From Gammaproteobacteria bacterium (GTDB lineage: Bacteria; Pseudomonadota; Gammaproteobacteria; JAJRRL01), in NCBI GenBank assembly GCA_024279495.1, contig JAJRRL010000040.1:74256-138255 (forward strand): a DNA stretch of 64,000 bases, written 5' to 3'. Every line of letters starts with the position of its first letter. The stretch's first letter is position 1. Below the pieces are notes generated by a model that worked only from the letters and a program-made list of their open reading frames with translations, made no database searches and was not told where the DNA came from. Shown piece after piece: positions 5,228-7,584 of the stretch. The position numbers were made by a program, and so were the translations under genes.

Positions 5228-6981
5228 TTAAATGCCAAGGAGTGAGCCTCCAGTTGGGCGGTAAGTCGCTCTTAGACAATGCTTCATTTACGATTCAAGT
5301 AGGTGAAAAAGTAGCGATCATTGGTCGTAATGGCGCAGGAAAATCATCGCTATTGGGTTTGATAGAAGGAAAGATTGAGCCAGATTCAGGGCAGTTTGAT
5401 ACACAAGGCGCTAGAATCGCTAGTTTACCGCAATCTGTTCCAGCTGACTGCAAGGGCTTGGTCGGTGATGTGGTGATGTCAGTGTTGAGTGAGGACGAAC
5501 GCTGGGAAAGGCAACATGAGTTAGAACCTTTATTGTTAGGTTTGGGTGTTTCAGAAGAAAAACGTGTGGAAGAGTTGTCGGGTGGGCAAGTTCGGCGAGT
5601 ACTTTTGGCGAAAGCCTTGATTCAAAAGCCTGATGTGCTATTGCTCGATGAGCCGACTAATCATTTGGATATGGAAGCGATTCAGTGGTTAGAGCGTTTT
5701 TTGATTGATTCAAGAATAACACTTTTATTGGTTACTCACGATCGATCGTTGTTGCAAGCAGTGGCTACCGCTATTTTAACCGTAGATGTGTATGGTACAA
5801 CGCTTTGGCGAGGTGACTACCAGGGCTACTTGGCGCATCAAAAAAATCAAGAAGCATCGCGCGAAAAAGAAGAAAGTGAATTCGATAAACGTTTAGCTGA
5901 AGAAGAAGTGTGGATTCGTAAGGGCATACAAGCAAGGCGAACACGAAATGAAGGTCGGGTTCGTGCGCTAAAGGCGATGAGAGAAGAGCATTCGGCCCGC
6001 AAGCAAAAAGTAGGGAAGGTGAACTTGTCTTCTCAAGAGCTTCGCTCCTCAGGGAAATTAGTGTTAGAGGTTGAGGGTTTGACTCACGCCTTCGATGATC
6101 AAGTGATTGTTAAGGATTTCTCTTGCCTTGTGTCTCGTGCTAGTAAAATTGGGATTGTTGGTCCTAACGGCGCAGGGAAAACCACCTTGCTTCGTTGTAT
6201 GTTAGGAGAGTTGACCCCTGATGCAGGGGAAGTAAGCTTGGGAACACAATTGTCTGTTGCTTATTTTGATCAGTATCGCAGGATTTTAAACGATACCGAC
6301 ACGATTCTTGAAGCAGTCGCCGGTGGATGTGATTTTATAGAGATAGCGGGTGAAAAAAAGCATATTTACTCTTATCTACAAGATTTTTTGTTTACCCCAG
6401 ATAAAGCCAGGGCTCGTATCAGTACGTTGTCGGGCGGGGAAAGAAATCGGGTTATGTTGGCAAAGTATTTGGCTCAATCAGCCAATGTGCTTGTGCTTGA
6501 TGAGCCAACCAACGATTTAGACATTGAAACCTTGGAGCTTTTGGAGGATTACTTGTGTCAATACCAAGGCACAGTCTTTTTAATCAGTCATGATCGTTCG
6601 TTTTTAAATAACGTGGTGACACAGACGTGGTTATTTAAAGGTAATGGTTTGATAGAGCAGCATGTCGGAGGTTTAGATTCGTATGTTGATCTGCAAGCTA
6701 TGTCCCAAAAAGAGTTGCAAAAGTCAAAAGATCGGAACACGAAGGGACCCTCTGTGTCGGCTCTGAGTTATGATGAACGAAAAGAATATAATCGCTTACC
6801 TAGTCGCATTGCCTCTAAAGAAAAAAAGATTGCAGAACTGCACAAGATCATGGCTGATTCGAGCTTCTATCAGGGCTCCCCAAAGGAGATTGAATCCAGT
6901 CAACAAAAGTGTGCTGATTTGGAGCGGGAATGTGAGGTTCTTTATGCTCGTTGGGAAGAGCTGGAGCTTAAGCAAAACTAA
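5224..6981 (+). CDS. ABC-F family ATPase (Uup/YheS-like; two ABC domains, C-terminal coiled coil)
   Basis: two Walker A motifs (GRNGAGKSS, GPNGAGKTT), two ABC signatures (LSGGQVRRV, LSGGERNRV), no TM domain, charged inter-domain linker, coiled-coil tail. Confidence 0.85.
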   Translation: MIKCQGVSLQLGGKSLLDNASFTIQVGEKVAIIGRNGAGKSSLLGLIEGKIEPDSGQFDTQGARIASLPQSVPADCKGLVGDVVMSVLSEDERWERQHELEPLLLGLGVSEEKRVEELSGGQVRRVLLAKALIQKPDVLLLDEPTNHLDMEAIQWLERFLIDSRITLLLVTHDRSLLQAVATAILTVDVYGTTLWRGDYQGYLAHQKNQEASREKEESEFDKRLAEEEVWIRKGIQARRTRNEGRVRALKAMREEHSARKQKVGKVNLSSQELRSSGKLVLEVEGLTHAFDDQVIVKDFSCLVSRASKIGIVGPNGAGKTTLLRCMLGELTPDAGEVSLGTQLSVAYFDQYRRILNDTDTILEAVAGGCDFIEIAGEKKHIYSYLQDFLFTPDKARARISTLSGGERNRVMLAKYLAQSANVLVLDEPTNDLDIETLELLEDYLCQYQGTVFLISHDRSFLNNVVTQTWLFKGNGLIEQHVGGLDSYVDLQAMSQKELQKSKDRNTKGPSVSALSYDERKEYNRLPSRIASKEKKIAELHKIMADSSFYQGSPKEIESSQQKCADLERECEVLYARWEELELKQN

Positions 6982-7106
6982 AGGAAAGTGCTGTTTTTTT
7001 TAAGCTAACCTTAATTTTCACGGGCTATAGTAAAAGTATGTAAGGTAATGAAGTGATTGGTTGATGTTGGTAATATAGGTTGGTAACAGCAGCAAGTTCG
7101 AGAAAA

Positions 7107-7132
7107 GCAGGTCTCCCACCTGCTTTTTTTTA
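7107..7132 (+). terminator. rho-independent terminator (GCAGGTCTCCCACCTGC + T8) after the ABC-F gene / repeat unit 1
   Basis: 6-bp GC-rich stem, 5-nt loop, run of 8 T. Confidence 0.7.
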
Positions 7133-7329
7133 TGTCTGGAAATCTTTAAGCTTTAAGCACAACAAAGCAAAGGTTTAGTCCCTATTTTCCATAAGAAAAA
7201 CTAAAGGAAAGTATCGTTTTTTTTAAGAAATCCTTAACTTCCACTGACTATAGTAAAAGTATGTAAGGTAATGAAGTGATTGGTTGATGTTGGTAATATA
7301 GGTTGGTAACAGCAGCAAGTTCGAGAAAA

Positions 7330-7353
7330 GCAGGTCTCCCACCTGCTTTTTTT
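7330..7353 (+). terminator. second copy of the same terminator hairpin (repeat unit 2)
   Basis: identical hairpin GCAGGTCTCCCACCTGC followed by T7. Confidence 0.6.
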
Positions 7354-7517
7354 ATGGTTTTTTTCAATTAAGTGGGTCAATTTAAGATAACCCTAATAAA
7401 AATCCTTATTTTTTTAAGCTTGAGTTAACATAGCTCCGTTATCCTAAAACCATTGAAGTAATTAAGTAACTGGTTGGTGTTGGTGATTTAGGTTGGTGAC
7501 ACACGACGAGTCGGGAA

Positions 7518-7545
7518 GCAGGTGTTCTTACATCTGCTTTTTTTT
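7518..7545 (+). terminator. diverged third terminator hairpin (repeat unit 3)
   Basis: GCAGGTGTTCTTACATCTGC followed by T8. Confidence 0.5.
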
Positions 7546-7552
7546 GTGCTTT

Positions 7553-7584
7553 TTAATATTATATTAATGTGGCTTCTGTATAAT
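7553..7584 (+). promoter_or_regulatory. PmrA-type response-regulator box (tandem TTAAT half-sites, 11-bp periodicity) placed over the -35 position of a TATAAT -10
   Basis: TTAATATT at 7553-7560, AT spacer, ATTAATGT at 7563-7570, then 8 bp, TATAAT at 7579-7584, SD GAGG at 7606-7609, ATG at 7615. Matches the cTTAATatT-N2-cTTAATatT consensus reported upstream of Dot/Icm genes in Legionella/Coxiella (from memory). Confidence 0.45.

Follow-up and report, generated by a model that had tools for sequence, protein, structure and literature searches.

Three tandem, terminator-ended units behind uup in an uncultured gammaproteobacterium: candidate sibling small RNA genes

Directly behind the ABC-F ATPase gene uup, a 64,000-nucleotide (nt) stretch of a Gammaproteobacteria bacterium genome (assembly GCA_024279495.1, contig JAJRRL010000040.1, positions 74,256 to 138,255; hereafter the window, in whose own numbering positions are given) carries three related units in tandem, all in the orientation of uup and each ending in an intrinsic terminator. 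The three-unit repeat is real and not due to chance. A degenerate 30-nt pattern of its core matches three times in the window and not at all in 100 shuffles. Our reading of the locus, which is offered tentatively and with a little less than even confidence, is that of an orphan trio of paralogous small RNA (sRNA) genes of about 90–97 nt on the + strand, of which the first lies in the 3′ untranslated region (3′ UTR) of uup. The units are plausibly new, orphan sRNAs of a kind that is already known, namely tandem sibling sRNAs, and their expression is a prediction from the sequence.

The gene uup occupies 5224–6981 on the + strand (NCBIfam ABC_ATPase_Uup, E 2e-193), and the next open reading frame (ORF) starts at 7615. 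The gap of 633 bp between them (6982–7614) contains the three co-oriented units. An initial annotation of this DNA had described a gap of 630 bp as unusually long; the length is nearly right, but gaps of 600–1400 bp between ORFs of at least 150 amino acids (aa) occur elsewhere in the window. A repeat search returned a direct repeat of 162 nt (6969–7130 and 7192–7353, 93% identity) and a three-copy family with a 44-nt TTGGT core at 7045, 7268 and 7458, in which the third copy is 84% identical; three-copy families were also found for the upstream T-tract segment and for the terminator segment. Repeat and fold analysis place unit 1 at 6969–7131. Unit 2 follows at 7192–7353 and is 100% identical to unit 1 across 7248–7353, and the diverged unit 3 lies at 7382–7545, all on the + strand. 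Between them lie spacer 1 (7132–7191) and the 28-nt spacer 2 (7354–7381), which cannot be aligned with each other. From start to start the units are spaced by 223 bp and then by 190–191 bp, so that the three related units described initially are confirmed but their regular period of about 220 bp is not. The array does not show the contiguous, near-identical units of a variable-number tandem repeat, or minisatellite: Tandem Repeats Finder made no call here because the units are separated by unalignable spacers of 61 and 28 nt, and unit 3 is 26–42% diverged.

The homology does not start exactly at the stop codon of uup, as had been stated, but at 6969, 10 nt 5′ of it. The last 13 nt of the gene, including the stop codon TAA at 6979–6981, thus form the left edge of unit 1, and the later units therefore carry pseudo-copies of the last uup codons. 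The end of uup in unit 1 reads AAG CAA AAC TAA, while the pseudo-copy in unit 2 (AAGAAAAACTAA at 7193–7204) reads AAG AAA AAC TAA. The corresponding pseudo-copy in unit 3 is more decayed than that of unit 2.

The units are not conserved evenly along their length. Units 1 and 2 do not differ at a single position across 106 nt (7025–7130), from 1 nt before the TATAGT hexamer to the T-run, whereas the 56 nt upstream (6969–7024) hold 11 mismatches (80% identity) and no alignable sequence is left past the T-run. The core of about 120 bp that was initially called near-identical is therefore somewhat shorter and without any mismatch. Had the mismatches been spread evenly, the chance of a mismatch-free core would be (56/162)^11, or about 8e-6 by our own arithmetic. 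This perfect block could be the result of purifying selection or the trace of a gene-conversion tract, the two being inseparable here. Unit 3 was rightly described as diverged but retaining the TTGGT-rich core, which is 84% identical across 44 nt. Compared with unit 1, its upstream part is 58% identical, its single-stranded 5′ stretch 68%, its first hairpin 74% and its terminator 71%; at a divergence of about 26–30%, unit 3 nevertheless keeps both hairpins.

Each unit presents the same order of elements: a tract of seven or eight T followed by AAG, a -10-like hexamer followed by AAAA, a single-stranded stretch, a first hairpin (hairpin 1) and the terminator. The distance from the T-tract-AAG to the -10-like hexamer is exactly 20 nt in all three units, and the composite pattern of T-tract-AAG and TATNNT-AAAA is found at only these three sites in the window. 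In unit 1, the T8-AAG motif lies at 6992–7004, TATAGT at 7026–7031, the C-poor 5′ single strand at 7036–7054, hairpin 1 at 7055–7098 and the terminator stem-loop at 7103–7127, with its T8 at 7124–7131; the predicted RNA would span about 7038–7131. In unit 2, the corresponding elements are found at 7215–7227 (T8-AAG), 7249–7254 (TATAGT), 7278–7321 (hairpin 1) and 7326–7350 (terminator, T7 at 7347–7353), and in unit 3 at about 7409–7418 (T7-AAG), 7440–7445, 7469–7511 (hairpin 1) and 7513–7542 (terminator, T8 at 7538–7545). The -10-like hexamer is TATAGT in units 1 and 2 and TATCCT in unit 3. The possible TATAGT -10 element that had been assigned to every core is thus present in two of the three, and no -35 element accompanies it. 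Apart from these elements, the hexamer TTTAAG occurs six times on the + strand of the 656-nt region 6960–7615 versus 45 times in the whole 64 kb, and spacer 1 holds a CTTTAAG mini-repeat (two copies, 7144–7158). The excess is due partly, but not solely, to the repeated T-tract-AAG motif, and TTTAAG/CTTTAAG could be a protein-binding motif or a mere trace of duplication.

The 5′ stretch of A, G and U, about 18–20 nt long and nearly without C, is predicted to be single-stranded, and the predicted unit 1 RNA has one C among its first 52 nt. Hairpin 1 is imperfect, 43–44 nt long and rich in G·U and A-U pairs, with UUGGU motifs on its arms, and it is followed within 1–4 nt by the terminator hairpin. 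Three UGGU motifs are found per unit, at a spacing of about 10–13 nt. As initially proposed, every unit ends in its own intrinsic terminator, with GC-containing stems followed by T8, T7 and T8. The terminator scan flags those of units 2 and 3. That of unit 1, which has the same hairpin as unit 2 and then T8, escaped the scan only because its T-run was counted as part of the stem. The unit 3 hairpin had been considered as rebuilt with different stem bases. This is not the case: its terminator keeps GCAGGT/ACCTGC, with one G-C pair changed to G·U, and has gained two pairs from loop bases. This predicted architecture, in which a single-stranded 5′ end precedes a hairpin and a U-tailed terminator, is that of a typical trans-acting, enterobacterial-type sRNA.

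The fold of the units was retained while their sequences diverged. For hairpin 1, energies of -14.9 and -10.9 kcal/mol were obtained in units 3 and 1, respectively, and when unit 1 copies were given 8–12 random substitutions in a simulation, about 2% of them matched the hairpin 1 energy of unit 3. The terminator energy, which is -15.1 kcal/mol in both units 1 and 3, was matched by 0.4–1.5% of the randomly mutated copies. Among the 18 pairs of hairpin 1, 12 are invariant, five are changed on one side with the pair kept (U-A/U·G, A-U/G·U and U·G/C-G), and only the outermost one is lost. When the alignment register was slid, pairing fell from 98% to 21–52%. No double compensatory change was seen in hairpin 1, where only two distinct sequences could be aligned, so that the structural support comes from wobble-neutral changes alone. 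The fold check that the initial annotation had suggested showed a strand-specific fold: the z-scores of hairpin 1 alone are -2.6 and -3.0 on the + strand versus +0.8 and +0.4 on the - strand, and the whole predicted RNAs have z-scores of -2.6 to -3.35 versus about -1.1 to -1.2. Taken together, conservation, hairpin retention and the strand-specific fold favour a functional + strand RNA, although they are not proof of it. An RNA from the minus strand was rejected, as that strand shows no fold, and so was an A/T inverted-repeat hairpin over the uup stop codon, which was not significant (z -0.3 to -0.8).

If the units are sibling sRNA genes, they would have arisen by tandem duplication of a segment that starts in the last uup codons. 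Unit 1 lies within the 3′ UTR of uup, given that the first terminator downstream of this gene is its own, which would serve both; units 2 and 3 would be free-standing. For this reason, the initial claim that the arrangement argues against a simple 3′ UTR is too strong for unit 1, which belongs to the 3′ UTR of uup whatever the reading. Transcription of the units would proceed from their own promoters. The RNAs may act in trans, with the G/U-rich, C-poor region pairing with C/A-rich (ACCAA-like) sites in mRNAs; such pairing is suggested by the C-poor, G/U-rich stretch itself, in the manner of the R1 region of GcvB. The terminator hairpin and the U-tail may serve as a chaperone-binding module. 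A bolder version, which we regard as improbable, sees here a lineage-specific sRNA family at its birth, in which an RNA from the uup 3′ UTR was copied twice together with the last uup codons and the copies became free-standing genes. The upstream control regions would be diverging in this scenario, and a new UUGGU module would pair with C/A-rich sites or bind a protein.

Several results weigh against the interpretation as sRNA genes. A promoter scan of 6500–8300 detected no sigma-70-type promoter on either strand. The hexamers located 17 ± 1 nt 5′ of the -10 box are AGCTAA, AGAAAT and AGCTTG, which are unlike TTGACA; the -35 positions are neither conserved nor consensus-like, and an extended -10 is absent. 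When start regions and the entire 64 kb were scanned for duplexes, no mRNA target scored above shuffled controls and none was common to units 1 and 3, so that the target prediction proposed with the initial annotation brought nothing within the window. Neither hfq nor csrA was found in the window. The G/U richness of the units is partly a matter of strand composition, as the window has a GC skew of +0.14 and a threefold asymmetry of TTGGT, with 158 occurrences on the + strand versus 49 on the - strand. The skew is positive throughout the window (+0.05 to +0.21 per 2 kb); the whole of it appears to belong to a single replication arm, and such a one-arm strand bias inflates G/U-rich motifs on the + strand. 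Double compensatory changes are absent from hairpin 1, as noted above, and the perfect 106-nt match between units 1 and 2 may be owed to one gene-conversion tract instead of selection.

No homologue was found either. No Rfam 15 family other than tRNAs reached its gathering threshold in the whole window, and a permissive Rfam search of 6500–8000 gave only tRNAs and sub-threshold terminator look-alikes. The best local match was STnc50, on the minus strand and over the terminator only (24 bits versus a threshold of 55, E 0.28). The degenerate 30-nt core had no match in metagenome contigs or in viral contigs. A looser 22-nt pattern gave four matches, which cover only model positions of about 29–54 and were judged to be due to chance: a pair of them comes from one and the same homologous coding region, a third is probably in coding sequence, and the fourth falls in an unrelated AT-rich stretch that has no terminator. 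Several clustered TTGGTGAT-like motifs were noticed on a short metagenome contig (L015, 830–925), one of them being a chance match to the 22-nt pattern. The match to the model extends over just 22 nt and has no terminator behind it, and the cluster is probably unrelated to the units. With a covariance model of the three units (R1), neither the window nor the loci of relatives yielded an additional copy.

The relatives do not share the element either. The Uup protein forms a singleton cluster, and the collections searched contain no second strain; in a protein search, the Uup proteins of its nearest relatives (L008–L012) were 62–63% identical to it, and a scan of genome contigs for Uup gave only relatives at no more than 44% identity. 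The closest named Uup matches share 46–48% identity and include metagenome-assembled genomes (MAGs) of Coxiellaceae. No such element follows uup in the nearest relatives (L008–L012), nor in two Coxiellaceae MAGs (L017 and L018). The nearest relatives keep the order uup ... sbcB – CDF transporter, but what separates uup from a membrane-protein gene in them is a conserved ORF of 60 aa together with a DUF2799 gene, and no repeat. Their interval after uup spans 7817–8756 in L008, 7815–8784 in L009 and 6496–6675 in L012, to be compared with 6982–7614 in the window. The ORF is 59–61 aa long (MVSxLFGRDVCDHANQ...SYxLFNELM...) and has a good ribosome-binding site and a TACTATAG box. The DUF2799 gene follows it on the opposite strand in L008–L011, while the L012 contig ends before that point. 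A tblastn search against the window found neither the 60-aa ORF nor DUF2799, from which it follows that the uup–sbcB interval is a variable spot in this lineage. An origin of the units from the 60-aa ORF or its promoter was rejected, as local alignments were no better than those of shuffles.

These results can also be accommodated by a duplicated uup 3′ UTR and terminator module that has no function of its own, an explanation that we consider less likely but the main rival. A segment of about 220 bp, from the stop codon of uup through the 3′ UTR to the terminator, would have been duplicated twice. Units 2 and 3 would be relics that are not transcribed, the unit 1/2 core would be a recent conversion tract, and the array as a whole would decay slowly and might vary in length. 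It would account for units that begin inside uup and carry pseudo-copies of its stop codon, and for the fact that the first terminator after uup is that of unit 1. It is also in line with the failure to find a sigma-70-type promoter in the scan of 6500–8300 or homologues in the collections scanned, with the variation of the locus among relatives and with the lack of compensatory covariation; the contiguous 106-nt block does resemble a conversion tract. However, the limits of this block are exactly those of the predicted gene, from the -10 box to the T-run, and the two hairpins of the diverged unit 3 are retained or even stronger (P about 0.02 for hairpin 1 and about 0.01 for the terminator), with every internal hairpin change keeping the pairing. 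Moreover, none of the three units has an indel in the 20 nt between the T-tract-AAG and the -10-like hexamer, in contrast to the scrambled spacers. Another explanation accepts that the units are transcribed but assigns them a role as decoys for an RNA-binding protein, in the manner of CsrB or RsmY/Z but with another motif, two or three UUGGU(R)A on a symmetric hairpin. The three regularly spaced UGGU motifs of each unit would suit such a role. Where the hairpin of units 1 and 2 has its two GUUGGUAA copies, unit 3 has GUUGGUGA at both places. These A-to-G changes are parallel, fall on equivalent positions (alignment columns 37 and 50) and are not needed for the structure, but a rough estimate puts the chance of this parallel change only at about 0.05. 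The predicted RNAs of units 1, 2 and 3 contain 0, 0 and 1 GGA motifs and so are not CsrA-type sponges, the UGGU frequency is inflated by strand composition, and we know of no protein that reads UUGGU. On balance, the decoy role appears quite improbable.

The three co-oriented terminators between two co-oriented genes might alternatively act in cis, as tandem attenuators or leaders that govern read-through from uup into the downstream gene of 205 aa. This is very unlikely, given that a perfect TATAAT (7579–7584, read from the sequence) follows the last terminator 30 nt before the start codon, that Rfam gave no riboswitch, T-box or leader match, that no anti-terminator alternative is evident in the folds and that no leader peptide is conserved. 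Still less credit is given to a reading of the units as members of a dispersed repeat or mobile-element family of the REP or MITE type, or as small-peptide genes. The hairpins in each unit would fit the former, but no other copy was found in the 64 kb by pattern search or covariance model and no terminal inverted repeats flank the units. Short ORFs on both strands would fit the latter, but neither their frame nor their start codon is conserved between units, and indels break the frames. Coding potential was rejected in general, as no ORF is common to the units; for a 9-codon TTG/CTG frame in the core, unit 3 has no Shine-Dalgarno sequence and the changes are mostly non-synonymous. The proposal of tandem sRNA genes made in the initial annotation, which is also the reading preferred here, is partly supported: conservation, fold and terminators speak for it, and no sigma-70 promoter, double covariation, homologue or target was found.

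The downstream gene lies at 7615–8232 on the + strand and encodes an Ala/Gly-rich, membrane-type protein of 205 aa; it is treated as a neighbour of the feature. The TATAAT hexamer 3′ of the unit 3 terminator is likely the -10 element of this gene, which implies that the units are not a leader of it. The protein is probably membrane-spanning, has no NCBIfam match and forms a singleton cluster. At the same position, the relatives encode proteins of 192–199 aa with a similar composition and no BLAST similarity. Further away, large ORFs (327–883 aa) without an NCBIfam match are located at 10874–15048, 43697–45034, 45232–47769 and 57603–60254. They sit among housekeeping genes (ccm, suf, dnaE and valS) and are reminiscent of the effector-rich, host-associated genomes of Legionellales- or Coxiellales-like bacteria. 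The window also contains a tRNA cluster, Gly(GCC)-Cys(GCA)-Leu(TAA), on the + strand (57181–57486) and a lone tRNA-Leu(CAA) on the - strand (28900–28986), with nothing unusual about either.

If the units are expressed, they would represent a new, as yet unclassified family of sRNAs from a gammaproteobacterial lineage that is poorly sampled and probably host-associated, and a clear example of an RNA embedded in a 3′ UTR that was amplified into free-standing sibling genes. As this kind of sRNA is already well known and the organism is uncultured, their value is limited to annotation and possibly to a case study of sRNA evolution.

The sRNAs embedded in a 3′ UTR that share the terminator of the upstream mRNA, of the DapZ or MicL type, resemble unit 1, which directly follows the uup stop codon and holds the first terminator available to uup. 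Units 2 and 3 would be free-standing duplicates, which is atypical of that class. With CsrB, RsmY and RsmZ the units have in common a short motif repeated on stem-loops and the presence of several sibling copies, but the defining GGA motifs are absent (0–1 per RNA) and there is no Rfam hit. In GcvB, the G/U-rich R1 region pairs with most targets (PMC9299463). The long G/U-rich, C-poor stretch of the units is similar to this region; however, the units are about half as long as GcvB, the stretch is predicted to lie largely inside a hairpin, and the Rfam search, which included the GcvB family, gave no such match. The units can also be compared with tandem sibling sRNAs born by duplication, a documented class that includes PrrF1/PrrF2 of P. 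aeruginosa, OmrA/OmrB of E. coli and AbcR1/AbcR2 of Agrobacterium and Sinorhizobium (PMC4211561). The likeness would consist of two or more homologous RNAs of about 80–110 nt that lie head to tail in one intergenic region, with their own Rho-independent terminators, an origin by duplication and differing upstream regions (PMC4211561). Unlike those pairs, to which the units have no sequence or Rfam relationship, the array described here has three copies, its promoters are putative, and it starts inside the end of a protein-coding gene.

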